DNA from: Candidatus Woesearchaeota archaeon
GTDB taxonomy: Archaea > Nanobdellota > Nanobdellia > Woesearchaeales > GW2011-AR9
NCBI GenBank assembly: GCA_018696595.1
Contig: JABHQW010000002.1
Coordinates: 74,128 to 98,127, forward strand
Reading direction: 5' to 3'
Length of the DNA stretch: 24,000 nucleotides
Shown here piece by piece: positions 1 through 16,646 of the stretch (positions are counted from its first letter, which is position 1; each line of letters starts with the position of its first letter). The notes beneath the pieces are model-generated. The model saw only the letters and a program-made list of their open reading frames with translations, was not told the DNA's origin and did no database searches. The position numbers and the translations under genes are program-made.

Positions 1-447
1 GTTGGAACTTTAACTAGAAAACTTTCTCAGAAAGTTTTACCTAAAGGAAGAGTTTATGCTTTTGATTTTATTGAGCATAATGTTAGGGTTGCTTTATCTC
101 ATATGAAGAGACACGGACATGTTAACTTTTACCACCATAAACATTTAGATCATTTTAAAACAACTATCAAATTGCCGAAGATGGATGCTTTAGTTTCTAC
201 TGGTTCTTTGTCTTATATGCAAAAGCCACAAAATGTTTTGAACCATTTAGGTAAGCATGTCAAGAAAGGTGGCCGAGTTGTATTCTTAGATTACGATCAG
301 TTCTTTTTCTTTATTCCTAATGTGCCCTGGATTAGTGATGAGAAAAAACTTAAAAAGATGTTTAAGATTGCTAGTTTTGAAGTTGAAGTTATTAAGAAAC
401 GCGGATTGTTATGGAGACATATCTTTATTCATGGTAAGAAAGTTTAA
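1..447 (+). CDS. SAM-dependent methyltransferase-like domain; 3' part of a gene that starts upstream of the window (probably a third APC-permease/methyltransferase paralog)
   Basis: Frame 1 is open from nt 1 (VGTLTRKLSQKVLPKGRVYAFDF...) and is in frame with tracked ORF 103..447. It aligns along its whole length with the C-terminal 150 aa of 3929..6004: GTLTRKL, SLSYMQKPQNVL vs MLSYMQNPLKVL, GGRVVFLDYDQFFFFIPNV vs GADVVFLDYDKFFYFIPNV, KRGLLW, terminal GKKV vs GKRV. Confidence 0.8.
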   Translation, partial: VGTLTRKLSQKVLPKGRVYAFDFIEHNVRVALSHMKRHGHVNFYHHKHLDHFKTTIKLPKMDALVSTGSLSYMQKPQNVLNHLGKHVKKGGRVVFLDYDQFFFFIPNVPWISDEKKLKKMFKIASFEVEVIKKRGLLWRHIFIHGKKV

Positions 448-490: not shown

Positions 491-2824
491 GTGGTGAGAA
501 ACAAATTAGACAAAATAATACAACTATTAATCCCTCCCTCATTAGTTCTCCTTCTTGTTGTTACTATCATTGAACTTTTTTATGGTGTTGGTAAATCTAT
601 GTCAATATTTATTGATATTTTTGATGTCTATGTGATTATTATTTTTGCTATTGATTTGTATTACCGATGGTTTGAAACTCCACGCTTTTGGCCTTATATT
701 AAAAAACACATTCTTGATATTATTGCTACTATCCCTTTCAACTTAATTTTTTTAGGAATTGAAGCACTCGCTTTAATAAGAGCGTTAAGGGGTGTTCGTA
801 TTATTGCTAGAATTGTTAAGTTTGCACGATTTGCACGTTATGGTCGTTTATTAAGATTATTAAGATTTGGTGCAAGAGCACCGAGATTTATTAGGGTAAG
901 AAAGCAAGTAAAAAAAGGTAAAATTCGTAAAGTTCAACCGCACGAAAAAGAGTTGAAGAAAACATTGAGTTTTAAAGTAATCCTCCTAATCACAATTAAC
1001 TCCATTATGGGTACTGGTATTTGGTTCCTTACTTCTGCAGGAGCTAAACATGCTGGTCCCGCTTCTTTAGTTTCTTGGGGTGTATTGTCTTTAATTTCTG
1101 TTTATATTGCGATGTGTTTTGGAGAATTAGTTTCTATGTTTCCAAAAGCAGGTGGCGTTTATGAGTTTGCTAAACAAGCTTACGGTAGATTTTGGAGTTT
1201 CGTTATTGGTTGGACCACATCTATTGCTGGAAGTGTAACTATTGCTATGCTTCTTTTAGGTGCGTTACAATATCTTATTCCTCTTAAATATTCTTTTACC
1301 TATATCCCTATTGCAATTTTTTTAATTATTGCTTTCAGTTATGTAGCATTTAGGGGGATGCAAACTTCAACCGTTGTTTTGGTGACCTTTGCAATCATTA
1401 CTTTAACTGCGGTTGTTTCAATTATCATTCCTGGATTTATTAATTTTAAACCGGGCAATCTTGATCCTTTCTTTGTTTTCCCAGCAATGAATGTCTTGTT
1501 AGCAATATTCTTTATTGCGGAAACTTTCTTTGGTTGGGAAAGTGCTATTTTTCTTTCTGCTGAAACAAAAAATCCTTCTAAAATAATGCCTAAGGCGTTA
1601 ATTTACGGAACTCTTATTATTGCGGTTTTGTCTTTCTTTTTAGCTCTTACAGCTATGGGTACTATTCCCTGGGCAGAATTTTCAGAATCTGTAGCACCAC
1701 TAAAAGATTTAGGAAGCGTCCATTTTGGAAATATTGGGGGGATAATCTTTGCAATATTGATTTTTATTTCTGTAATTGGTGCTACTGCAGGTTGGATTGT
1801 AACTGCACCAAGATTATTAATGTCTATTGCTGAAGATAAATTATTTTTCACTCAATTTGCAAAAATTCATCCCAAACATAAAAGCCCTTACGTTTCAATA
1901 ATTTTTCAAGTTTTAGTTGTTTCAACTTTAGTTATTGTTGGGGCTGGTTCGTATGAAACTTTATTGCATATGCTAATTCCTTTAATTTTGGTTGTCTATT
2001 CTGCTGTCTTGTTAAGTCTCGTTATTTTACGTTTTAAAAGACCAGAATTAAAACGACCTTACAAAGTTATTTTTGGAAAAGTTGGCCCTCTTATCACGAT
2101 GCTGTTTATGGTTTTTCTATTAATAATGTTTATTAAAGAAACTCATAGTGCTTTTGACATCTTGAGGATTTCTGCTGGTTTAGTTGCTTTTGGTATCCCT
2201 GCTTATTTCGCAATTGAATTATTTTATGATAAGAAATATGTTACTCTTAGAAGAAATTTGATGGCTAAGTTATCACATCATTATAATAAATTTCCTTTAA
2301 CTAAAATGACATTTAATAAAATAATTTCTTTAGTTGGACCATTTAATAAGAAATCTTCTCTTATGGTTTATAATTCTCCAATGGGGGCTTTTACTCAAAA
2401 AATTGTTAAATCTAAAATTCCTTTCCGTAAAATAATTATTGCCAATCAGTCAAAAGAAGAAATTAAAGTTTTCAAAGAAAAAATTTCTTCTGAAAATAGA
2501 AAACATATTGGTGTGCATTTGTTGAGAAAATTAAGTGTCCCTGTAAATGTGGGGAAAGTAAATGCTTTTGTTTCATTTAATAGTTTAGGACATGTTAAAG
2601 ACGTAGCTGGGTTTGTTCACAATGTAAAGAAAGTTCTTAATAAAAAAGGCAAGTTCTGTTTTTATGTTAAAAACAATTTTCTGAATATGACTCCTAATGC
2701 TTTATTAGTTGAAGATAAGAAAAAGATGCTGGCTTTGTTTAAGAAAGAAAAATTAGTGGTAACTTATAACAAAAAAAGAAGATTGTTTAAGACAGAAATA
2801 TTTATTTGTGGTAAAAAAGTTTAA
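491..2824 (+). CDS. Three-domain membrane protein: N-terminal voltage-sensor-like (S1-S4, no pore) domain + APC-superfamily amino-acid/polyamine permease + C-terminal degenerate methyltransferase-like domain
   Basis: 777-codon ORF with a GTG start 6 nt after GAGGT (480-484). The S4-like helix RALRGVRIIARIVKFARFARYGRLLRLLRF has a basic residue at about every third position, and the S3-like segment is KHILDIIATIPFNLIFL. APC motifs are GGVYEFAKQAYG, SAETKNPSKIMPKAL and KIHPKHKSPY. The C-terminal ~160 aa are homologous to the MTase domains at 1..447 and 5534..6001, but the SAM motifs are altered. Confidence 0.85.
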   Translation: MVRNKLDKIIQLLIPPSLVLLLVVTIIELFYGVGKSMSIFIDIFDVYVIIIFAIDLYYRWFETPRFWPYIKKHILDIIATIPFNLIFLGIEALALIRALRGVRIIARIVKFARFARYGRLLRLLRFGARAPRFIRVRKQVKKGKIRKVQPHEKELKKTLSFKVILLITINSIMGTGIWFLTSAGAKHAGPASLVSWGVLSLISVYIAMCFGELVSMFPKAGGVYEFAKQAYGRFWSFVIGWTTSIAGSVTIAMLLLGALQYLIPLKYSFTYIPIAIFLIIAFSYVAFRGMQTSTVVLVTFAIITLTAVVSIIIPGFINFKPGNLDPFFVFPAMNVLLAIFFIAETFFGWESAIFLSAETKNPSKIMPKALIYGTLIIAVLSFFLALTAMGTIPWAEFSESVAPLKDLGSVHFGNIGGIIFAILIFISVIGATAGWIVTAPRLLMSIAEDKLFFTQFAKIHPKHKSPYVSIIFQVLVVSTLVIVGAGSYETLLHMLIPLILVVYSAVLLSLVILRFKRPELKRPYKVIFGKVGPLITMLFMVFLLIMFIKETHSAFDILRISAGLVAFGIPAYFAIELFYDKKYVTLRRNLMAKLSHHYNKFPLTKMTFNKIISLVGPFNKKSSLMVYNSPMGAFTQKIVKSKIPFRKIIIANQSKEEIKVFKEKISSENRKHIGVHLLRKLSVPVNVGKVNAFVSFNSLGHVKDVAGFVHNVKKVLNKKGKFCFYVKNNFLNMTPNALLVEDKKKMLALFKKEKLVVTYNKKRRLFKTEIFICGKKV

Positions 2825-2897: not shown

Positions 2898-3248
2898 ATG
2901 GTAAAATTAACTTATATTGAAAAAAAAGGATTTACTCAGAACAACCGTTATGACGCTGGAGTTCAAGCTATTAAGGCTACTGGTGTATTGGAAGCTTTTT
3001 ATAATTTATTGCCTAGTCATGATCAAAGAGGATTTAATATTTCTTCTGGTATCGTTGATACTCTCCCTTCTTACTTTGCGGTTCCTATCAAACGAAAATT
3101 AGAAAAAAGTTTTAACCCTAATATACATCCGCAGGATCCAGTAATTGCGGTTGCTGATTACAGATTAAATGAAAGAATTAATCTCAATCCAGAAGAAAAC
3201 CAAACTCTTGATAAATTAATGGAAGGAATAAGTATGGTGCCATTGTAA
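2898..3248 (+). CDS. Hypothetical protein (116 aa), embedded in the permease cluster
   Basis: ORF with GGAGG 9 nt upstream and an upstream TATA box. I recognise no motif. Confidence 0.55.
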   Translation: MVKLTYIEKKGFTQNNRYDAGVQAIKATGVLEAFYNLLPSHDQRGFNISSGIVDTLPSYFAVPIKRKLEKSFNPNIHPQDPVIAVADYRLNERINLNPEENQTLDKLMEGISMVPL

Positions 3249-3256
3249 TCTTTCAT

Positions 3257-3835
3257 CTACTTTTTATTTTTGTTTTTCTTCAAATTTCTTTTCTCTAGAA
3301 CTTTTGTATGTTTCTTCTGATACTCTGGTTTGTGTCTATGAACATGATGTGTGACTTTTGTAAACAATCTTGATTTGGTAACAATTCTTAATGATCGAGC
3401 AGCTAATCTAATATACTTAGCAATTTTCTGACTTCTACTTAAGGCAGAGATGCCTTTTCTTGCTTCTAATGACTCATGTAATATTGCTTGACTAATGGTG
3501 TATTTTCCAGCAGTTGCAGCGACTCGCCAAACTCGACTTACAATAGTAAATACAATCACTAGGGGGACAACTGCGACTATATCTAACCAGTAACTTTTGA
3601 AAAAGAATTTCCAGGTTTTAGCTTTGATTGCCAAGAAGATCAAATCAATGACAAAGATGACGATGATAAAGTAATCTAATGCCACAATCGGTGTATGGTA
3701 AAGTTCAACAAAATGATGAACTGATTCGTTAAAGTACCCGATGACTTCTAAAACGATAATTATCAGCAAACCCACAATCGCTGCTGGAATTAACTTGGCA
3801 TTCCAATGTTCAACCTTTTCCCAAAAATTATTCAT
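3257..3835 (-). CDS. Free-standing voltage-sensor-like 4-TM protein (ion-transport S1-S4 module without pore), 192 aa
   Basis: I place the start at the internal ATG (3835, MNNFWEKVEHW...), because the longer tracked ORF would overlap the divergent gene and swallow the promoter. A TATA box on the minus strand sits about 26 nt upstream, giving a leaderless layout. The S3-like segment is SYWLDIVAVVPLVIVF, followed by basic S4-like stretches SRVWRVAATAGK and KYIRLAARSLRIVTKSRLFTK. No GYG/pore region is present. Confidence 0.7.
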   Translation of the reverse strand: MNNFWEKVEHWNAKLIPAAIVGLLIIIVLEVIGYFNESVHHFVELYHTPIVALDYFIIVIFVIDLIFLAIKAKTWKFFFKSYWLDIVAVVPLVIVFTIVSRVWRVAATAGKYTISQAILHESLEARKGISALSRSQKIAKYIRLAARSLRIVTKSRLFTKVTHHVHRHKPEYQKKHTKVLEKRNLKKNKNKK

Positions 3836-3857
3836 AGAAGAAAGTAATTTTTTTAGG

Positions 3858-3865
3858 TATATAAA
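3858..3865 (-). promoter_or_regulatory. TATA box (minus strand TTTATATA) for the 3835 VSD-like gene
   Basis: The minus strand reads aaaaTTTATATAc, centred about 26 nt upstream of ATG 3835. This matches the leaderless spacing seen at other genes in the window. Confidence 0.5.
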
Positions 3866-3882
3866 TTTTGTCCTGTGATAAC

Positions 3883-3891
3883 TTTTATAAA
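3883..3891 (+). promoter_or_regulatory. TATA box (cTTTTATAAAt) for the 3929 permease-methyltransferase gene
   Basis: It lies back-to-back with the minus-strand box in the 93-bp divergent intergenic region. The predicted start site near 3912-3915 leaves a short leader containing AGAGG (3918-3922), 6 nt before ATG 3929. Confidence 0.5.
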
Positions 3892-3928
3892 TGATAGAAC
3901 AATAGTTAACTATGAAAAGAGGCATGAG

Positions 3929-6004
3929 ATGAAACTTAAACAGTTCTGGCAGTATTTAGTTACGGATAGTTCTAAGAAGAAGAAAGTTACAACTCTAACT
4001 TCTAATAAATCTATTTCTACTAAAACTGTAACTGTAAAAAGGCATCAATCTACCGCAAAAAGACTTCTCTCATCACCGGTTGTACTATTTATTTTAATTA
4101 ACTCTATCTTAGGGAGCTCATTATTTTACCTCCCCAGCCTAGGAGTTGTTTCTTCTGGGGCGGCATCACTTATTGCTTGGATTCTATTATTTGCTCTTTC
4201 AACATTTATGATGCTTTACGTTTCTGAATTAATTACTTTACATCCTACCTCAGGTGGAACTTACGAGTTCTGTAAACGAGCTTACGGAAGACAAATCTCT
4301 TTTTTTGCTGGCTGGATTATTTGGATTGCTGGAAATTTCGGAATGGCTCTTAATGTAGTGGCGGCTTCTGAATACTTTATCCCAGATACTTATTCTTACT
4401 ACTTCATTTTACGACTAGTTTTTGCAGCAATCTGGATTCTTGTTCTTAACTTTATGGCTTTTAGAGGAATAGATGCGGGAGCAACAATGTTAGTTGTTTT
4501 CGGAATTTTAACTGTGGTTGTAGTGATTGCAATGATCTTACCTTCTTTCATTGACATTCCTACTTTGTTTCAAGGAAGTTTAACCAGCCCATTTCAATTA
4601 GAAATGATGCAACCTTTCTTCCGTCATACTGGATTAGGAATATTTAGTTTCTTACTTCTCTCGGTTTTCTTAATCGCGGAAGCATTCTTTGGTTTTGAAA
4701 CAGTAAGTTATATGGCTAACGAAGTTAAAGATAAAAAGAATTTACCAAAAATAATGATTTCTGCAATGGTCATTTGTGGTGTTATCATGACGATTTATCT
4801 GTTAAGTTCGTTGGGGACAGTTTCTTATCATGATTATGTTAGTGATGCTCGGCCTTGGGCAGTACAGGCATTAAACAATATGGGCAGTTTAGGACAGAAC
4901 TTTGTTGTTTTTGGTATGTACCTAGTAATTATTGGTGCGGCAGCAGCGTGGCCAATTGCTAGTTCAAGATTGATTAGGGCGATGTCTAGCGATAAATTGT
5001 TTTTGAAACATTTCTCAAAGTTACATCCAAAACACAAATCTCCTTATCGTGCAGTTTATTTTCAAACAATCATAATTTTCTTATTTGCTTGGTTTATTTT
5101 TCGTGGATATATTGTTAAATGGGGTGATCCATATCGGACCATTTACTTAATCTACTTATTACTAAGTTTAATTGTACTATCACTTGTCCTTTTTGCAGTT
5201 CCTATCTTGAGGAAGAAAGAAGCACATTTGAAAAGAACATTTAAGGCGCCATTACCTTGGCTTGGTCCAATATTCTTTGTTGGTCTTTTTGTTTTCATGA
5301 TTATTAATTGGATCAGAATTGAAGGTGGTGTAGCAACGTCTGTAATTTTAATGGCAGGGTCATTTGTTGTTTTAGGAATTCCATTTTATTTCTTAGTGGA
5401 AATGTTTTACAATCCTAAGGCTATCATCTCAGTTAATGAAAGGTTATCTTATTTTGTAGTTATTGGAGAAAAATTATTTTTTCCTTTTACTATTAGAAAC
5501 AGATTGATTAAAGACCTAAAAACTTTGCGAGGGAAGTCTGTTTTAGAGTATGGTTGTTCTTTCGGAACACTAACTCGGAAGTTGGCAAAGAAAGTTACTT
5601 CTACTGGAAAAATTTACGCGACAGATTTATCTTTACACAAAGTTAAGATTGCTGATCAAAGAACAAAACGAATCAAGCATGTTTTTGTTCATCATCATCC
5701 TCATTTGAGTGATTTCAAATTGAAATTGCCTCAGAAGGTTGATAACGTGCTCTCTGTGGGGATGTTATCTTACATGCAGAATCCTTTGAAAGTATTGTCA
5801 AGTTTAGCGAAGCGAGTAAAAAGGGGTGCTGACGTAGTATTCTTGGATTATGATAAATTCTTTTACTTTATTCCTAACGTGAAGTGGATTGAAGAAGATA
5901 AAAAGCTAATTGCTTTATTCAAACGAGCGGGTTACAAAGTCAAAGTAGAAAGAAAACGTGGTTTATTATGGACTTATGTTATTATTAGTGGAAAAAGAGT
6001 TTAA
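3929..6004 (+). CDS. APC-superfamily amino-acid/polyamine permease fused to a C-terminal class-I SAM-dependent methyltransferase domain
   Basis: I place the start at ATG 3929 (MKLKQFWQYL), which has an SD; the tracked 3875 start overlaps the divergent gene. APC motifs are SGGTYEFCKRAYG, FFGFETVSYMANEVKDKKNLPKIM and KLHPKHKSPY. The MTase domain (5534-6001) shows motif I VLEYGCSFGTLT, an acidic beta-2 end IYATDLS, and GADVVFLDYD. Confidence 0.85.
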   Translation: MKLKQFWQYLVTDSSKKKKVTTLTSNKSISTKTVTVKRHQSTAKRLLSSPVVLFILINSILGSSLFYLPSLGVVSSGAASLIAWILLFALSTFMMLYVSELITLHPTSGGTYEFCKRAYGRQISFFAGWIIWIAGNFGMALNVVAASEYFIPDTYSYYFILRLVFAAIWILVLNFMAFRGIDAGATMLVVFGILTVVVVIAMILPSFIDIPTLFQGSLTSPFQLEMMQPFFRHTGLGIFSFLLLSVFLIAEAFFGFETVSYMANEVKDKKNLPKIMISAMVICGVIMTIYLLSSLGTVSYHDYVSDARPWAVQALNNMGSLGQNFVVFGMYLVIIGAAAAWPIASSRLIRAMSSDKLFLKHFSKLHPKHKSPYRAVYFQTIIIFLFAWFIFRGYIVKWGDPYRTIYLIYLLLSLIVLSLVLFAVPILRKKEAHLKRTFKAPLPWLGPIFFVGLFVFMIINWIRIEGGVATSVILMAGSFVVLGIPFYFLVEMFYNPKAIISVNERLSYFVVIGEKLFFPFTIRNRLIKDLKTLRGKSVLEYGCSFGTLTRKLAKKVTSTGKIYATDLSLHKVKIADQRTKRIKHVFVHHHPHLSDFKLKLPQKVDNVLSVGMLSYMQNPLKVLSSLAKRVKRGADVVFLDYDKFFYFIPNVKWIEEDKKLIALFKRAGYKVKVERKRGLLWTYVIISGKRV

Positions 6005-6009
6005 GAAAT

Positions 6010-7074
6010 TTATTTTCTTTTCTTTTTCTTTACTACTTTTTTTTTAATAACTTTCTTGGCAGTTTTCTTTTTGAGAGTTTTCTTCTTTACTGGTTTCTTT
6101 TTAGCAACTTTTTTTACTGTCTTTTTCTTTGTTACTTTCTTTTTAGCTACCTTTTTCTTGACAGGTTTTGTTACAACTTTCTTTTTAGAAGATTCTTTCT
6201 TACTAAAACTTACACTTTTCTTAGCAGCTAAATTTAATTTCTCTAAATCTTCAACAATATCAGAAGCAATGAAACAGTAACCTTTTTTTCTCTTCAATAA
6301 TTGGTCGCCAACCCAGCCATTAACATAACTTGCCGCAACTGCACTTTTAAACAAGTCTCTTGTCTTAGATAAAAATCCCACTGCTAGACCCGCTAAAACA
6401 TCTCCTGTGCCAGCTTTAGTCATTCCTTGATTGCCAGTTCTATTGTAAGCAACTTTATTTCTTGAAATAATTATATCTGTGGCTCCTTTCAGAAGTAGAA
6501 CATTATTGTTTTGTAAAAAGTAACGTAAGTTTCCTTGCAGAATATCTGCTTTTTCTTTAGCATTAGCTGATTTTAGTTTTGGTAACAGAAACTCTTTGCC
6601 ACTGTTAGCTAACATCATTTCTAATTCTGCTTCGTGTGGAGTAATGATAGAATTGTTGAAATCTTTAAATGACATTGATTTTAATGCATCAGCATCAACA
6701 ACTTTTAATCGTGGTGATTTTCTGATAAAATATTGGCTGAACTTGTCTGCTTTTCTGGTAATACCATTGCCTAAACAAATTGCATCAAATAATTCTGCAT
6801 ACTTAACCATTTCTTTTGCGTTTTTAATATTAAAATTACTGCCTTTGATTTTGTGAGTTATTAAATCTGGAGAGTAAGAGTTAATTATCCAAGCAACCTT
6901 TTCTGGGGCTGCAATCGTTACTGAATCACAACCAGCTCTTAGTGCTGCTAATCCTGCAAGGGCTGGAGCACCAACATAATCTTCAGAACCGCCAATAATT
7001 AAGGCATAACCATTTTCTCCTTTAGAAGAATTTTTCTTTCTGTCCATTAACTTTTTCACTTGATTAAGATTCAT
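6010..7074 (-). CDS. nnrD: ADP/ATP-dependent NAD(P)H-hydrate dehydratase-like (YjeF C-terminal / carbohydrate-kinase fold) with a ~70-aa lysine-rich C-terminal tail
   Basis: The N-terminus KGENGYALIIGGSEDYVGAPALAGLAALRAGCD and the motif AGTGDVLAGL are characteristic of the YjeF_C family. GAGGT lies 6 nt upstream of ATG 7074. The tail is KKESSKKKVVTKPVKKKVAKKKVTKKK...KKKKRK. Confidence 0.7.
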   Translation of the reverse strand: MNLNQVKKLMDRKKNSSKGENGYALIIGGSEDYVGAPALAGLAALRAGCDSVTIAAPEKVAWIINSYSPDLITHKIKGSNFNIKNAKEMVKYAELFDAICLGNGITRKADKFSQYFIRKSPRLKVVDADALKSMSFKDFNNSIITPHEAELEMMLANSGKEFLLPKLKSANAKEKADILQGNLRYFLQNNNVLLLKGATDIIISRNKVAYNRTGNQGMTKAGTGDVLAGLAVGFLSKTRDLFKSAVAASYVNGWVGDQLLKRKKGYCFIASDIVEDLEKLNLAAKKSVSFSKKESSKKKVVTKPVKKKVAKKKVTKKKTVKKVAKKKPVKKKTLKKKTAKKVIKKKVVKKKKRK

Positions 7075-9625: not shown

Positions 9626-11101
9626 ATGGACCGATCCATCTTAATCAAAAAATATTTCGAAGAAAAACGATTTGTGGACAGTAGTATTCAGTCTTTTAAT
9701 AACTTTATAGATAATGGTTTGCAAGAAGTTGTTGAAGAGAATAAAGAAGCAGAGCCTGCAATTATCCCACATAATATTGAAAAATTTAAAATCAGGTTCG
9801 GAAGAATTACTGTTGGTAAACCTGAAATTACTGAAGCCGATGGAAGTAAGAGGCCAATTTATCCTGCTGAAGCAAGATTAAGAAAAATTTCTTATTATGC
9901 TCCTATCTATTTGGAAGTTAGTACTTATATTAATGATGTTCAAAGAGAAAGTTTTGTTGCAGAAATTGGAAAAATGCCAATCATGCTTAGAAGTAAATAT
10001 TGTCATCTTGACGGGTTAAGCCGAGAAGAACTAATTAAACATGGTGACGACCCAACTGATCCTGGTGGATACTTTATTATTAACGGAACTGAAAGAGTAA
10101 TTGTTAATGTTGAAGATTTGGCAGCTAACAATTTTATTGTTGAAGGTAATCCCATTAAAGGATATAATGGGAGATTCTTTGCAGCAAAAGGATCTTACAA
10201 AATTCCTCATTCTTTTGAAAGGAAGAAAGATGGGATTTATTATATGACATTTACTCGGGTTAAGAATATGCCCATTATAGTTGTATTAAAAGCATTGGGG
10301 CTAACTAAAGACGAAGATATCATGCGAGCAATCTCTGCTAATGAAACTTATGAAGAAGTAATTCTTAACTTGTTTGAATTTGTTGATATCAAAACTCAAG
10401 AAGATGCAGTGGATTACATTTCTAAAAGAATTGGAATCGCTCAAGCTAAAGAAATTAGAATTGAAAGAACTAAAGAAATCTTAGACAAGTTCTTGTTACC
10501 TAATATTGGTATGGATATTGGCTTGAAATCAATAAAAGCAAAAAACATTTGTAAGATGTTAAAGAAATTCATTGATGTTAGAAAAGAAACAAGACCTTCT
10601 GATGATAAGGATCATTACATGAATAAAAGACTGAGACTTAGTGGAGACTTAATGATTGATTTGTTTAGAGTTAATTTTAAAATTCTGGTTGGAGATATTC
10701 TTTACAACTTTCAAAGAATTATCAAACGGGGAAAATTACCTTCAATCCGAGTTATTATTAGAGATAAGTTGTTAACTTCTAGACTTTATTCTTCAATGGC
10801 TACCGGAGAATGGGTTGGTGGGAGACAAGGAGTATCTCAAAGAATGGATCGTTCAAATTTTTTGGCAATGGTATCACATTTACAAAAGGTTGTTAGTCCG
10901 TTATCTTCAAGTCAAGAGAATTTTGACGCAAGAGCATTACATTGTACGCACATTGGTAGGTTGTGTCCAATTGAAACTCCTGAAGGTACAAACATTGGGC
11001 TAAGAAAAAACATGGCAATGTTATGTTCAATCTCACAAGACGTTGGGGAAACTAGCGTTCTTGAGAAAGTTAAAGAATTAGGTTTAAAACCTATCGAATA
11101 A
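9626..11101 (+). CDS. rpoB2: DNA-directed RNA polymerase subunit B'' (N-terminal half of split Rpo2)
   Basis: 491 aa with GGAGG upstream. Motifs include GYFIINGTERVIV, DDKDHYMNKRLRLSGDL and CPIETPEGTNIGL. Confidence 0.95.
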   Translation: MDRSILIKKYFEEKRFVDSSIQSFNNFIDNGLQEVVEENKEAEPAIIPHNIEKFKIRFGRITVGKPEITEADGSKRPIYPAEARLRKISYYAPIYLEVSTYINDVQRESFVAEIGKMPIMLRSKYCHLDGLSREELIKHGDDPTDPGGYFIINGTERVIVNVEDLAANNFIVEGNPIKGYNGRFFAAKGSYKIPHSFERKKDGIYYMTFTRVKNMPIIVVLKALGLTKDEDIMRAISANETYEEVILNLFEFVDIKTQEDAVDYISKRIGIAQAKEIRIERTKEILDKFLLPNIGMDIGLKSIKAKNICKMLKKFIDVRKETRPSDDKDHYMNKRLRLSGDLMIDLFRVNFKILVGDILYNFQRIIKRGKLPSIRVIIRDKLLTSRLYSSMATGEWVGGRQGVSQRMDRSNFLAMVSHLQKVVSPLSSSQENFDARALHCTHIGRLCPIETPEGTNIGLRKNMAMLCSISQDVGETSVLEKVKELGLKPIE

Positions 11102-11110
11102 GGAAATAAA

Positions 11111-12913
11111 ATGGCAGACGTTTATATTAATTCAAGATTTGTAGGAACAGTAGATGACATTAATCTATTTGTTGAGAACATAAAAGATGAAAGAAGAAAA
11201 GGTTCTTTGGCAGAAGATGTTAATGTTTATACTGATATAGAAAACAATGAAGTTCACGTTAATTGTGATGGTGGAAGAGCAAGAAGGCCTTTAATAATTA
11301 TTAAAGAAGGAAAATCTTTGCTAACAGAAAGACACTTGAAACAATTAAAAGATGGCGAAATCACTTGGGCTGATTTAGTGAGACAAGGAGTCGTAGAATA
11401 TTTGGACGCTGGTGAAGAAGAAAATGCATTAGTGGCTTACGACGAAACTCAATTAACCGAGAAACATACGCACATGGAAATTACTCCTGGGTCTATTAGT
11501 GGAATTGCAACTGCATTGGTTCCTTTTGGAAACTTTAACCAATCTTCAAGATTAATTATTGGAAGTAAGAACCAGAAACAATCTTTAGGATTCTATGCTG
11601 CTAATTATCACATTAGATTAGATATGGATACAAACTTATTACATTATCCACAATTTCCTTTAGTTAAAACTAAGTTACACGATGTTACTAATTATGATGA
11701 ACATCCGGCCGGCCAGAATATGGTTGTTGCTATAATGTGTTTCGATGGTTATAACATGGAGGATGGAGTTATATTAAACAAGAGTTCTGTTGAGAGAGGA
11801 TTGGCAAGAAGTACTTATTTCCGTCCAGTATCTGCAGAAGAATTACGTTATTCTGGTGGTTTAATTGATGAAGTTTCTATTCCTGATAAAGAAGTTAAAG
11901 GTTATCGTAGTGAAGCCGATTACAAGTTCCTTGAAGGGGACGGAATTATCTATCCTGAAGCAAAAGTATGTGATGGTGACGTGATTATTGGAAGAACATC
12001 TCCTCCTAGATTCTTGAGTAGTTTGGATGAATACAATTTATCTGCTGCCATTAGAAGAGAAAGTTCTGTTTCTTTGAAACATGGAGAAAAAGGTGTGGCT
12101 GACTTTGTCGTTATTACTGAAAATGAAGAAGGTAACAAACTTGTTCAAGTAAGATTAAGGGAGGAAAGAATTCCAGAGATTGGAGATAAATTCACTTCTC
12201 GTCATGGTCAGAAAGGAGTTACAGGTATTTTAGTTCCTGTGCAAGACATTCCTTTTTCCGCTAATGGAATTACTCCTGACTTAATTTTCACTCCGCACGG
12301 TATTTCTTCTCGGATGACCATTTCTCATTTATTAGAATTAATTGGTGGGAAAGTTGGTGCATTATCTGGAAGATTTGTTGATGGGACTTTATTTGAGGCA
12401 GAATCTGAACTTAATATGCGAGCAGAATTATTAAATCTTGGTTTTAAAGAAGATGGAACCGAAACATTTTATGATGGTCGGACTGGAAAGCAGATGTTAG
12501 CTAAGATTTATGTGGGAAACATGTATTATCTGAGACTAAGACATTTAGTTGCTAACAAAATGCAATCTCGGGCAAGAGGACCAATCCAATTACTAACAAG
12601 ACAACCAACTGAGGGTAAGGCTAAAGAAGGTGGTCTAAGGTTGGGAGAGATGGAGAAGGATGTTTTCATTGCTCACGGTGCTTCATTATTATTGAAGGAA
12701 AGGTTTGATTCTGATAAAACAAACTTACCAGTTTGTGAAAAGTGTGGCCTAGTGGCAGTTGAAGACCAATACAAGAATAGAAAGTACTGTTTGATGTGTG
12801 GCGAAGATGTTAACATTAATTATGTTGAGATGAGTTACGCATTTAAATTACTGTTAGACGAAATAAGAAGCTTAGGTATCTACCCTAAGTTGAATTTAGA
12901 AAATAAGTATTAA
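11111..12913 (+). CDS. rpoB1: DNA-directed RNA polymerase subunit B' (C-terminal half of split Rpo2)
   Basis: 600 aa. Motifs include GDKFTSRHGQKGV, GGLRLGEMEKD and the C-terminal Zn ribbon CEKCG...CLMCG. It starts 9 nt after the B'' stop. Confidence 0.95.
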   Translation: MADVYINSRFVGTVDDINLFVENIKDERRKGSLAEDVNVYTDIENNEVHVNCDGGRARRPLIIIKEGKSLLTERHLKQLKDGEITWADLVRQGVVEYLDAGEEENALVAYDETQLTEKHTHMEITPGSISGIATALVPFGNFNQSSRLIIGSKNQKQSLGFYAANYHIRLDMDTNLLHYPQFPLVKTKLHDVTNYDEHPAGQNMVVAIMCFDGYNMEDGVILNKSSVERGLARSTYFRPVSAEELRYSGGLIDEVSIPDKEVKGYRSEADYKFLEGDGIIYPEAKVCDGDVIIGRTSPPRFLSSLDEYNLSAAIRRESSVSLKHGEKGVADFVVITENEEGNKLVQVRLREERIPEIGDKFTSRHGQKGVTGILVPVQDIPFSANGITPDLIFTPHGISSRMTISHLLELIGGKVGALSGRFVDGTLFEAESELNMRAELLNLGFKEDGTETFYDGRTGKQMLAKIYVGNMYYLRLRHLVANKMQSRARGPIQLLTRQPTEGKAKEGGLRLGEMEKDVFIAHGASLLLKERFDSDKTNLPVCEKCGLVAVEDQYKNRKYCLMCGEDVNINYVEMSYAFKLLLDEIRSLGIYPKLNLENKY

Positions 12914-12933
12914 ACTTATGTTGAGGAAAAAAA

Positions 12934-15504
12934 ATGGATCGACAAGTGCATAAAAAAGTATGTAATATTAACTTTAGTTTGTTTTCTCCAAAACAAATTA
13001 TGGATCTAGCTGCTGCTAAAGTAGTTACTCCTGAATTATATGATCGTGAAGGATATTCTGTTGACGGTGGTTTAATGGATATTCGTTTAGGGGTTATTGA
13101 TCCAGGGTTAAGATGTAAAACCTGTGGTCAAAAGCTTAAAGAATGTCCTGGTCATTTTGGATATATTGAATTAGCAAGACCTGTAATTCATATTAAGTTT
13201 GTTAGACAAGTTCTTGATTTGTTAAAATCTACTTGTAAATATTGTGGTCAGGTTCTTATTCCTGAAAATAACATTAGCAAGTTTACCGATGTTTTTGATA
13301 AAGTGGGTAAGGAAGAAGGTTTTGAAGCAAGAAGAAGAAAAATTAAGGAAGTTGTTAATAAATTTAAAACTAAAGAAAAGTGTCCTCATTGTGAGAAAAA
13401 ACAAGAAAAAATTAAAATTGAAAAACCTTATACTTATTACGAAAGTGATTTACGTCTAAGTCCAATTGAAGTGCGAGCAAGATTAGAAAAAGTACCTTCA
13501 GAAGATCTTAAAATCTTTGGATACGTAGAAGGTTTCCGTCCAGAATGGATGGTTCTAACTGTTTTACAAATTCCTCCAGTTACGATGCGTCCAAGCATTA
13601 CTTTAGAATCTGGAGAACGAAGTGAAGACGACTTAACTCATAAGTTAGGTGATATTGTTAGAATTAATCAGCGTTTATTTGAGAACATTAATGCTGGTGC
13701 TCCTGAAGTTATTATTGAAGATTTATGGGATCTGTTACAATACCATGTTACAACTTTCTTTGACAATGCAGTTTCTCAACTACCTCCTGCAAGACATCGG
13801 GGCGGACAAGTACTAAAAACATTAGCTGCAAGAATTAAAAGTAAAGAAGGTCGGTTAAGACATAATCTTGCTGGTAAGAGAACTGACTTTTCAGCGAGAA
13901 CAGTTATTAGTCCTGACCCTTTTATTGATTTGAACCAAGTTGGTGTTCCATTATCAATGTCAATGAATTTAACAGTTCCAGAAAGAGTTACTGAATGGAA
14001 CAAAGAATACCTGTTAAAGTTTGTTAAGAACGGACCAAAAAAATATCCTGGTGCTAATTATATTATCAAGCCTGATGGAAAAAGAAAATCCATAACTGAA
14101 GATACACAAGAAGAAATCTTAGAAGAGTTAGAAGAAGGTTATCTTGTAGAAAGACATTTACTTGACGGTGATGTTGCTTTATTTAACAGACAACCAAGTT
14201 TGCACAGAATGAGCATGATGTGTCATAAAGTAAAAGTTCTTCCAGGTAAAACATTCCGTTTGAATCCTGCAGTTTGTAATCCTTATAACGCTGATTTTGA
14301 TGGGGATGAAATGAACTTACATATTCCACAGAACGATGAAGCAAGAGCAGAAGCAAAAATTTTAATGTTGGTTGATACTCAAATAATTAGTCCCCGTTAT
14401 GGATTAAGTGTTGTGGGTTGTATCCAAGATGCAATTACTGGTAATTATCTTTTAACTAAAGAATTAGTTTTAAGTAGGGCTGAAGCAACTGACTTATTAT
14501 ATAATTGCGGGGTTACTGATTTGTCCCCTTTACCTAAGAAAGAGAAGGTTGATGGTAGTGAAGTATTCTCTGTTTTATTACCTAACGACTTTAGTTTCAT
14601 TGGTAAAGATAAGAGTGGTAATGACGTTAAGATTGTTAATGGAAAACTAAAATCTGGTTACATGGACAAATCTAACTTAGGTCAAGAAAGTGGACTGATG
14701 TTAAGAAACATTTATGAAAAATATGGTCCTGCTTATACTGCTGAACTTTTAGGTAAGATCTCAAAATTAGGTATTTCTGTATTGGCAAGAAGAGGGTTCT
14801 CGATTGGAATTGGGGATATGGACTTACCATTAGAAACACAAGATGAAATTAGGGCAACTGTAAAGAAATCCGAAGATGAAGCACTAAAAATAATTGATGA
14901 ATTTTATGCTGGAAAATTGGATGCATTGCCTGGAAGAAGTGTTGCTGAAACTCTTGAACTTAATGTTCTTGGTGCACTTAACAAAGCAAGAAATAAGAGC
15001 GGAGATATTGCTATGAAACAAGTACAAAATAGTGCAGCAATTACTATGGCTCGGAGTGGTGCAAGAGGAAATCCTTTAAACATTGCTCAAATGACTGCTG
15101 TTGTTGGTCAGCAAGCTTTAAGAGGTAAAAGAATTGAGTCTGGTTTTAAAAATAGAACCATGTCTTATTTTGGAAATAAAGATCTTAGTCCTAAGGCTAG
15201 GGGTTTTGTTAAAAATAATTTTAAAAGCGGTTTGACCCCTGCAGAGTTCTTTTTTGGAGCGATGACTGGGAGAGACGCATTAATGGATACTGCTTTGAGA
15301 ACACCTAAATCCGGTTATCTTTATCGAAGATTATCTAACGCTTTACAAGATCTTAAAGTTGAATATGATGGCACAGTTAGAGATGCAAGTAGTAGGATTG
15401 TCCAGTTTAGTTATGGAGAAGACGGATTAGATGTTTCCAAAACTAAGAATGGTGTTGTTGATGTAAAAAGTGTCATTCAAAATGTTATAGGTGCAAGCAA
15501 ATGA
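12934..15504 (+). CDS. rpoA1: DNA-directed RNA polymerase subunit A' (Rpo1N)
   Basis: 856 aa. Zn motif [20 protein letters not shown] and catalytic [12 protein letters not shown] are present. Confidence 0.95.
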
Positions 15505-16646
15505 AAGCAGAACACACAAAAATAATTAATAGCTATGCTGATAAATTACCTCCATTAGTATTGAAAACAGTGGAAGAAGAAGTTCCTGGAAATATTAGTG
15601 CTAGCAATCTATCTAAGATTATGGAAGGAGTTATTGCAGCTTACAAATATGCTGAAGTTCATCCTGGTGAAAGTGTTGGTTTAGTTGGCGCTGAAAGTAT
15701 TGGTGAGCCTGGTACACAAATGACTTTGAATACGTTTCACTTGGCTGGGGTTGCTGAAGTACAAGTTACTACTGGTTTGCCAAGGATTATTGAAGTTTTT
15801 GATGCAAGAAAAGAAATCAAAACTCCAATGATGGAGATTTATCTTAAAAGTCCACATAATAAAAATATGGAAAAAGTTCGTAAGTTTGCTGCTAATATTA
15901 AAGAGATGAAATTTGAAGAATTTGTTTCCGAATATTCATTAAGTATCTTTGATCAGACTCTTAAAGTAGTTTTAAATAAAGGTTTGTTAGATGACAATGC
16001 TTTAGTTGCAAAAGACTTAATCAAGTTAATTAAGACTAAAGCAAAGGGATTTAATTTAACAAGTCAAAATGAAGAGATTCTTTTTACTCATAAAGGTAAA
16101 ACTGAGGAAATTAAAGATCTTTATGCAATCAAGGAAAAAATTAAAGATGTTAAAGTTGGCGGAGTCAAGGGTTTGAAACAAGTTCTTCCAGTAAAGCGAA
16201 ATGAAGAATATGTTGTTTTAACTTCTGGAAATAATTTGAAAGATGTTTTGGCTTTACCTGAGGTTGATTCAAATAGAACAACTAGTAACGACATCTATGA
16301 AATTTATAAAGTTCTGGGCATTGAAGCGGCTAGACAAGCAATAATTAATGAGGTTTACAAAGTTGTTGAATCTCAAGGATTGAATGTTAATATTCGTCAT
16401 ATTATGCTTGTAGCAGACGTGATGTGTGCTAGTGGTGTGGTTAAAGGAGTTACTCGTTATGGTGTTGTTAGTGAGAAAGCTAGTGTTTTAGCAAGGGCAT
16501 CTTTTGAAACTCCATTAAAACATTTATTTAATGCTGCATTGGAAGGGGAAGTTGATGACCTGACTTCTGTAGTTGAAAATGTAATGATTAATCAGCCAGT
16601 TCCAATTGGTACTGGGTTACCTGGATTAATAACAAAGATGAAATAA
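15501..16646 (+). CDS. rpoA2: DNA-directed RNA polymerase subunit A'' (Rpo1C)
   Basis: 381 aa. The ATGA start/stop overlap with rpoA1 suggests translational coupling. Motifs [29 protein letters not shown] are present. Confidence 0.95.

Follow-up and report, generated by a model that had tools for sequence, protein, structure and literature searches.

To our knowledge, voltage-sensor domains are found almost only in ion channels, the exceptions being a phosphatase, Hv1, TMEM266 and SLC9C1. Hv1 is recognized by two signatures, the RxWRxxR motif in segment S4 and an Asp in the middle of S1 that acts as the selectivity filter. TMEM266 is a functional sensor of unknown output, and Hv channels are stated to be absent from bacteria and archaea (review, PMC13095418). 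SLC9C1 has been described as the only sensor-regulated transporter (PMC10620092; PMC13095418). No natural sensor-plus-transporter pair was described in the literature found, and the literature searched held no description of archaeal sensor-only proteins or of sensor-APC fusions. Here we describe candidates for the latter two in a 24,000-nucleotide stretch of DNA (contig JABHQW010000002.1, positions 74,128 to 98,127, hereafter the window) from a Candidatus Woesearchaeota (DPANN) archaeon with a GC content of about 33%. Gene A encodes a putative voltage sensor fused to an APC permease and a methyltransferase-like domain. Gene B encodes a free-standing, sensor-like protein of segments S1 to S4 with no pore domain. 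Gene C, transcribed divergently from B, encodes an APC-methyltransferase protein of the same kind as A that has no sensor. All coordinates are listed in Table 1. The A, B and C proteins are identical residue for residue to the public NCBI gene calls.

Judged from its amino acid sequence, B retains the parts that a voltage sensor needs, including a basic S4. Residue conservation was read from a 34-member alignment of the B family. In S1, E30 is conserved in at least 90% of the family and aligns to E28 in S1 of A. F61 and D64 of S2 occur in every member, and D54 in at least 90% of them; these residues align to F52-x-x-D55 and D45 of A. S3 contains five invariant residues (Y82, W83, L84, D85 and P91), aligning to L75, D76 and P82 of A. 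The S1 to S3 countercharges and the charge-transfer center of a voltage sensor therefore have their counterparts in B. In the basic S4-like helix, R147, R150 and K154 are invariant and R143 is found in at least 90% of the family; this helix aligns to RYGRLLRLLRF of A. Between S3 and S4 lies a polar helix with three invariant residues (Q116, H120 and E124) and a fourth, E121, that at least 90% of members share. Distant sensor-only relatives (P0144-P0171) also have a helix of this QAILHESLE type, but A-type sensors do not. Hydropathy analysis of B shows three strong helices followed by a weakly hydrophobic basic fourth, and a weak S4 is typical. The basic tail that follows would fit a cytoplasmic C-terminus.

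Every sensor match to the Pfam profile Ion_trans (PF00520), in the B family as in the N-terminus of A-type proteins, is confined to profile positions of about 9 to 124. B itself matches positions 9 to 124 of 241, which is the S1-S4 half only (E = 1.1e-4), and matches at E ≤ 0.01 were obtained for 21 of the 34 family members, the best with an E value of 2.5e-6. A profile search of the Protein Data Bank (PDB) with the B family found S1-S3 of NavMs at E = 0.02. Among proteins of solved structure, the sensors of KvAP and NavMs/NavAb (PF00520) are the best sequence matches, and their S1-S3 countercharge positions align with those of A and B. A and B differ from such prokaryotic six-transmembrane (6TM) channels in having no S5-P-S6 pore, and the S4 of B is atypical. 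Hv1 and TMEM266 resemble B as free-standing S1-S4 proteins without a pore domain. PDB searches gave no significant match of B to either of them. Unlike Hv1, B has no conserved RxWRxxR and no mid-S1 Asp; its only conserved S1 acid, E30, is located near the outer end of the helix. Further differences of B are the QAILHESLE helix that separates S3 from S4, and a tail that is basic and of low complexity instead of a coiled coil. One string of B, R101-V-W-R104-V-A-A, recalls the Hv1 S4 motif RLWRVAR. An Hv1-like reading of this string (window 3524-3535, just after S3) was rejected: the third Arg is missing and the string is not conserved, the family consensus at this position being x-x-Y-R-x-x-x-A.

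NCBIfam and Pfam assign no family to B. Its homologs form at least 158 clusters, all of about 160 to 215 aa and almost all from Woesearchaeota or Nanoarchaeota, and they are encoded at 67 species-level loci. Across the family, the same start and stop are kept, as is the basic tail. B ends after S4 and the basic tail, with no S5-P-loop-S6 pore of a 6TM channel, and on the minus strand downstream of B the sole open reading frame (ORF) of at least 20 aa is 32 aa long, with no pore remnant. It was concluded that B is an intact, free-standing protein of a large unannotated family in Woesearchaeota and Nanoarchaeota. The match to the S1-S4 half of Ion_trans only is also what would be seen if a full-length voltage-gated channel gene had been disrupted and B were its N-terminal fragment. 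That explanation is refuted, however, by the size and uniform length of the family, its conserved ends, its presence at 67 loci and the absence of a pore-like ORF downstream, and we give it practically no weight. A first-pass annotation of the window had likewise held that B is probably not a remnant ion channel. In one locus (L022:7983-9458), the B-family module is part of a 491-aa protein whose C-terminal extension of about 300 aa has no Pfam hit. Tandem B-family duplicates are located directly after the gene for NAD(P)H-hydrate dehydratase (NnrD) at L023:7498-8477, L033:7433-8477 and L038:1521-2565.

B and the N-terminus of A are homologous far beyond chance. In a BLASTP alignment, B and aa 13-157 of A have 22% of residues in common (E = 3e-9), and HHalign of the B-family profile against A-type N-termini gave a probability of 98.7% and E = 3.6e-16 over 120 columns. 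The first-pass annotation had proposed that B shares the S1-S4-like layout of the A N-terminus, and had asked for this alignment; the layout is borne out, and the S2-like (aa 52-70) and S3-like (aa 81-96) segments of B lie where it placed them. The two modules are only about 22 to 25% identical, and B carries the QAILHESLE insert that A does not. Their sequences indicate distant paralogs of different subfamilies. An origin of B or of the A sensor from the Kv channel gene that neighbors B in some genomes was rejected, because B and the A sensor resemble each other far more (E = 3e-9) than they resemble the sensor of the local Kv channel (E = 4e-3 and 2e-4). The A N-terminus was also searched exhaustively against 1.84 billion representatives, yielding only 153 relatives. 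These include the fused form (P0140, P0141) and are mostly sensor-only proteins of 140 to 230 aa, some of them much nearer to the A sensor than B is (P0142, 55%; P0143, 47%). In PDB, the A N-terminus matches the KvAP sensor (1ors/2kyh) at E of about 1e-3. In the phmmer alignment, D45 and D55 of A face the Asp residues in S2 of KvAP, and D76 and P82 face the Glu and the Pro of its S3. The match of the A N-terminus to Ion_trans covers positions 15-110 (E = 1e-3, 18.7 bits), and related sensor-only proteins match the S1-S4 half of this profile as well.

Like SLC9C1, A carries a secondary transporter and an S4-type voltage sensor, here a predicted one, in one polypeptide. SLC9C1 is eukaryotic and of the CPA/NHE fold, with its sensor C-terminal to the transporter and with a cyclic-nucleotide-binding domain. 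A, in contrast, is archaeal and belongs to the APC (LeuT-fold) transporters (AA_permease_2 at 1.6e-44), has its sensor at the N-terminus about 30 residues before transmembrane helix 1 (TM1), and ends in a methyltransferase-like domain. Searches of Pfam and PDB found no sequence relationship of A to SLC9C1 beyond the generic sensor fold, and no cyclic-nucleotide-binding domain in A. A may therefore be likened to SLC9C1 in mechanism and logic, not in family. The fused sensor-APC-methyltransferase form is widespread: a full-length search found at least 120 clusters with 60 to 100% identity at about 100% coverage, all of which carry only APC or "APA family" permease annotation. This overturned the impression of a rare fusion given by a word-index search with the A N-terminus (19 mostly truncated matches). 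A conserved basic linker of about 30 residues joins S4 of A to the first helix of the transporter core. Sensor-only proteins have His-rich C-terminal tails that look similar to the linker motif QPHEKE, which is consistent with the fusion of a whole sensor-only gene to an APC gene. An apparent split into a sensor (179 aa) and an APC protein (411 aa) at L001:8001-9823 (P0136) was rejected as a natural fission. The sensor there continues in a single frame into APC helix 1, where the frame shifts, and the split was put down to a frameshift or assembly artefact; L001 is a polished long-read contig with many fragmented genes.

The C protein shares 30% identity with A across the entire APC and methyltransferase region (E = 4e-96) and has no N-terminal module, in agreement with the first-pass description of C as a paralog of A without sensor that diverges from B. 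Its methyltransferase-like domain scores above the Pfam cut-off for Methyltransf_23, _12, _31, _25 and _11 (Methyltransf_23: 43.6 bits versus a cut-off of 27). Motif I of C reads VLEYGCSFG, and G-C-S-x-G is conserved in C-type proteins and in a further sensor-less type, here called D. The corresponding domain of A (window 2288-2824; 5498-5908 in C) is degenerate: LMVYNSPMG replaces motif I, and Methyltransf_11 falls just under the cut-off (20.8 versus 21.2 bits). Distant A-type orthologs retain full, strong methyltransferase matches. The transporter cores of A and C also match BasC (6f2g, 1e-26), AdiC, LAT1/2 and GkApcT in PDB, none of which has been described with a voltage sensor or a methyltransferase-like domain. 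NCBIfam offers no equivalog for A or C, every score being far under the cut-off.

The 93-bp region between B and C contains two TATA-like boxes, as had been noted at first pass. The B-strand box TTTATATA is located at 3858-3865 (minus strand), 23 to 30 nt before the B ATG, and the C-side box TTTATAAA at 3884-3891. Both boxes, together with the AGAGG before the C ATG, are conserved in three related loci (L002, L003 and L004). TATA-like octamers are not enriched in the AT-rich window (27 found versus 34.9 expected), so the support for the boxes comes from their position and conservation and not from their count.

Conservation of the gene neighborhood was examined in both directions. In the forward direction, the 67 species-level loci found with the B family were scored for an APC-methyltransferase gene within about 1 kb of B, and 13 of them have one. 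The gene is C-type in five loci (divergent in L002-L004, convergent in L055 and L062), A-type in five (divergent in L005, L007, L009 and L024, tandem in L034) and D-type in three (divergent in L031, L041 and L052). In a neighbor-joining tree of B, the window and 18 loci form a clade of 19 that takes in 11 of these 13 loci; the two exceptions are L034 and L062. The D-A-B-C island of the window recurs in L002, L003, L074, L078, L080 and L081. In the reverse direction, 76 metagenome loci were found with C-type and D-type proteins. B is present within 5 kb in 7 of the 20 distinct C-type loci with usable flanks, four of them in the arrangement of the window, and it is nearby in about 2 of 40 D-type or other loci. 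Two other A-type genes, found at four places (L070-L073), have no B nearby. In L069, the stop of a gene for a 332-aa B-like protein (6006-7004) overlaps the start of an A-type fusion gene. The adjacency of B and APC-methyltransferase genes is real and recurrent but limited by lineage; partner and orientation vary, and it is a property of neither family overall.

Other neighbors of B are more common. A protein of about 135 aa with a zinc ribbon is encoded divergently and adjacent to B in 27 loci, and a convergent gene for a protein of about 419 aa is found in 34 to 35 loci; from a sequence motif, the latter reads as a nucleotidyltransferase resembling the CCA-adding enzyme. Zinc-ribbon gene, B, and CCA-adding-enzyme-like gene make up the widest context of the family. 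In a second context, found in at least seven genomes, NnrD directly precedes B on the same strand (L008, L011, L012, L023, L028, L033 and L038). In four loci (L007, L009, L024 and L034), the gene that separates the zinc-ribbon gene from B is of A-type. A Kv channel gene follows B on the same strand at a distance of 3 to 139 bp in L007, L008, L011, L029, L034 and L041, and lies within 2.7 to 4 kb of B in L003 and L005. Its product is a genuine 6TM channel with a TVGYGD filter (Ion_trans 4e-23; Ion_trans_2) and a C-terminal CxxC...CxxC zinc ribbon. No homolog of this channel is encoded in the window.

We tentatively favor, with slightly less than even confidence, the account that B is a sensor-type protein whose partner is not fixed, and that its adjacency to A and C in the window reflects an island of one lineage at an old B locus. 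Several observations weigh against this account. The conserved S4 charges of B are spaced 4-3-4 and not strictly every third residue, unlike the canonical RxxR runs in the S4 region of A, and the B segment opposite the first RxxRxxR run of A carries His and Glu. The Ion_trans score of B (21.9 bits) is under the Pfam cut-off of 25 bits. An AlphaFold2 (AF2) model of B from the 34-sequence alignment had a mean predicted local distance difference test score (pLDDT) of 75.7; S1-S3 are confident at about 88, but the S4 region has a pLDDT of 51 to 75, residues 75-132 form one long helix, and there is no compact sensor bundle. A Foldseek search of this model against PDB gave no significant match (top match Kv4.2, E = 2.7); the non-significant list is headed by Kv4, NavAb and SLC9C1. 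As modeling and Foldseek were unsuccessful for B, the case for a sensor rests on sequence profiles and conserved residues. The AF2 model of full-length A (41 sequences) is acceptable in its APC and methyltransferase parts and unreliable in the sensor part (pLDDT 33-74). Finally, about 50 of the 67 B genes have no transporter or channel within 5 to 8 kb, a distribution that an autonomous role for B fits equally well.

The first-pass annotation had gone further and made B the probable dedicated partner of the permease family. In such a scheme, B would be a non-covalent sensor subunit of the sensor-less C- and D-type permeases, and A the same system in fused form. The homology of B to the A sensor, the divergent pairing of B and C across a conserved promoter region, the recurrence of the island in relatives, and the occurrence of B beside C- or D-type genes in varied orientations (L031, L041, L052, L055, L062, L082, L087 and L102) all speak for it. 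We nevertheless regard it as unlikely. APC-methyltransferase genes accompany B in that minority of 13 loci, 11 of them in a single clade, and no B was found within 5 kb in 13 of 20 C-type and about 38 of 40 D-type or other loci. Housekeeping genes are the commonest neighbors of B. The operon-like neighbors (Kv, and A in L069) already bear a sensor of their own, the opposite of what is expected if B supplies a missing one. B and the A sensor also belong to different subfamilies. The Rosetta-stone argument of the annotation holds insofar as fused (A) and separate (B and C) forms coexist in one island; it requires orthologs, however, and is weakened because B is a distant paralog, neither the ortholog nor the closest relative of the A sensor. 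Similarly, the expected adjacency does recur in related genomes, but only in the fractions given above (13/67 B loci and 7/20 C-type loci). The claim of a dedicated two-component system is weaker than one genome suggested.

The neighbors could instead be incidental, brought in by local duplication or insertion, with B acting alone as a sensor-only ion or proton pathway or as a sensor of membrane potential that has an output of its own. Sensor-only proteins have precedents in Hv1 and TMEM266 (PMC13095418). The context of zinc-ribbon gene, B and CCA-adding-like gene is conserved clade-wide in about 35 loci, tandem B duplicates occur in three loci (L023, L033 and L038), and A-type genes between the zinc-ribbon gene and B lie where a gene inserted or born at the B locus would be expected. 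This explanation is somewhat unlikely, however: B lacks the mid-S1 Asp and the conserved RxWRxxR of Hv1, the B/C promoter region is conserved, and two cases of transport-gene proximity outside the main clade, plus L069, were observed versus about 0.3 by chance (our own estimate, which assumes about 3 such genes per 1000 or so genes). Still less probable, and indeed very unlikely, is that B serves the 6TM Kv channel as an accessory subunit and that APC-methyltransferase neighbors replaced Kv secondarily in the window. The closely spaced downstream Kv genes of six loci, the more distant ones of L003 and L005, and the bona fide channel nature of their product would agree with it; but a Kv gene is seen in only 6 to 8 of the 67 loci and is missing from the window, and Kv already has its own sensor.

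Under the account favored here, the S4 of B would most likely move with the membrane potential, and the signal would most likely pass to other membrane proteins through contacts within the membrane, with no covalent link. The polar helix on the extracellular side and the basic tail may serve for output or as ligand sites. Candidate partners are the APC-methyltransferase proteins in the lineage of the window and Kv elsewhere; an autonomous role for B is nearly as likely. The D-A-B-C island would have been built at an old B locus in one lineage and would not represent a family-wide two-component system. Proximity of APC-methyltransferase genes to B persists through A, C or D partners in divergent, convergent and tandem orientation, including L034, L062 and L069. 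Split hERG channels (PMC6013512) and Kir2.1 with a phosphatase sensor domain (bioRxiv 10.64898/2026.08.07.743441) provide precedents for a sensor acting in trans. Both pairs are engineered or heterologous and involve ion-channel pores; the kind of mechanism is the one proposed for B. In A, the sensor would most likely make transport dependent on membrane voltage, by analogy with SLC9C1. Its four helices are predicted to have both termini inside and to end about 30 residues before TM1 of the LeuT-fold core, and a moving S4 could influence how TM1 gates the transporter.

The remaining genes of the window were assigned as follows. The truncated ORF at the left edge encodes the C-terminal end of a D-type protein, 78% identical to the C-terminus of a 626-aa D-type gene product in L003. 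Between A and B lies an ORF of 116 aa. It has no Pfam or NCBIfam match, tblastn found no counterpart at the 67 related loci, and it is perhaps an orphan of this lineage. One accession number is free between those of B and A, and may correspond to this ORF. The NnrD protein beyond C has a C-terminal tail of about 70 aa that is very basic, of low complexity, and rich in K, V and T. The remainder of the window is archaeal housekeeping (tRNA-Lys, split RNA polymerase subunits, S7, Kae1 and GyrB). At 9626-16646 (plus strand), RNA polymerase subunit B is encoded in two genes (Rpb2 domains 1-3, then 4-7) and subunit A is split into A' and A'', the usual archaeal arrangement.

Table 1. Features of the window and, in the last six rows, of the Kv genes downstream of B in related loci.
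Feature	Coordinates	Strand	Description
Gene A	491..2824	+	777 aa; MBT3814683.1; NCBI "APC family permease"
Architecture of A	aa 1-~135; aa 159-547; aa ~600-777	+	putative sensor, followed by basic linker; APC permease; methyltransferase-like domain (Pfam, PDB matches)
Putative sensor module S1-S4 of A	491..895	+	RxxR repeats R97, R100, R103 ... R116, R119, R122, R125; conserved in A-type alignment
Gene B	3257..3835	-	192 aa; MBT3814681.1; NCBI "hypothetical protein"; S1-S4, basic C-terminal tail, no pore domain
S1 of B	aa 14-34; 3734..3796	-	hydropathy peak; conserved E30
S2 of B	aa 50-72; 3620..3688	-	D54; charge-transfer-center-like motif F61-x-x-D64
S3 of B	aa 80-101; 3533..3598	-	YWLD85, P91
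Polar helix of B between S3 and S4	aa 112-126; 3458..3502	-	Q116, H120, E121, E124
S4-like basic helix of B	aa 139-158; 3362..3421	-	R143, R147, R150, K154
Divergent B/C intergenic region	3836..3928	.	93 bp; two TATA-like boxes; AGAGG upstream of C ATG
Gene C	3929..6004	+	691 aa; NCBI "amino acid permease"
Domains of C	aa 52-473; aa ~524-660	+	APC permease (AA_permease_2 4.6e-43); class-I methyltransferase-like domain
D-type APC-methyltransferase paralog	1..447	+	no sensor; C-terminal end, cut by window edge; Pfam methyltransferase matches
ORF between A and B	2898-3248	+	116 aa
NAD(P)H-hydrate dehydratase (NnrD)	6010..7074	-	Pfam Carb_kinase 1.8e-43
Kv gene	L007:8658-9614
Kv gene	L008:8549-8888
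Kv gene	L011:8556-9428
Kv gene	L029:8529-9419
Kv gene	L034:5062-5931
Kv gene	L041:8539-9519

The interest of this locus lies mainly in the unannotated fusion and the archaeal sensor-only family, and less in the two-component proposal. The public annotation ("hypothetical protein" and "APC family permease") hides a sensor-APC-methyltransferase fusion and a free-standing sensor-like family in DPANN archaea. It is doubtful, in our judgment, that the APC-methyltransferase permeases are voltage-gated solute carriers whose sensor is either fused (A) or a separate docking subunit (B on C- or D-type proteins). If they were, they would represent the first voltage-gated secondary transporter of any prokaryote, and the first sensor-transporter pair of two components found in nature. 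If A or B does sense voltage, small and simple proteins would become available for the study of how a sensor is coupled to a LeuT-fold transporter, and the control of nutrient uptake by membrane potential would extend to archaea with tiny genomes.

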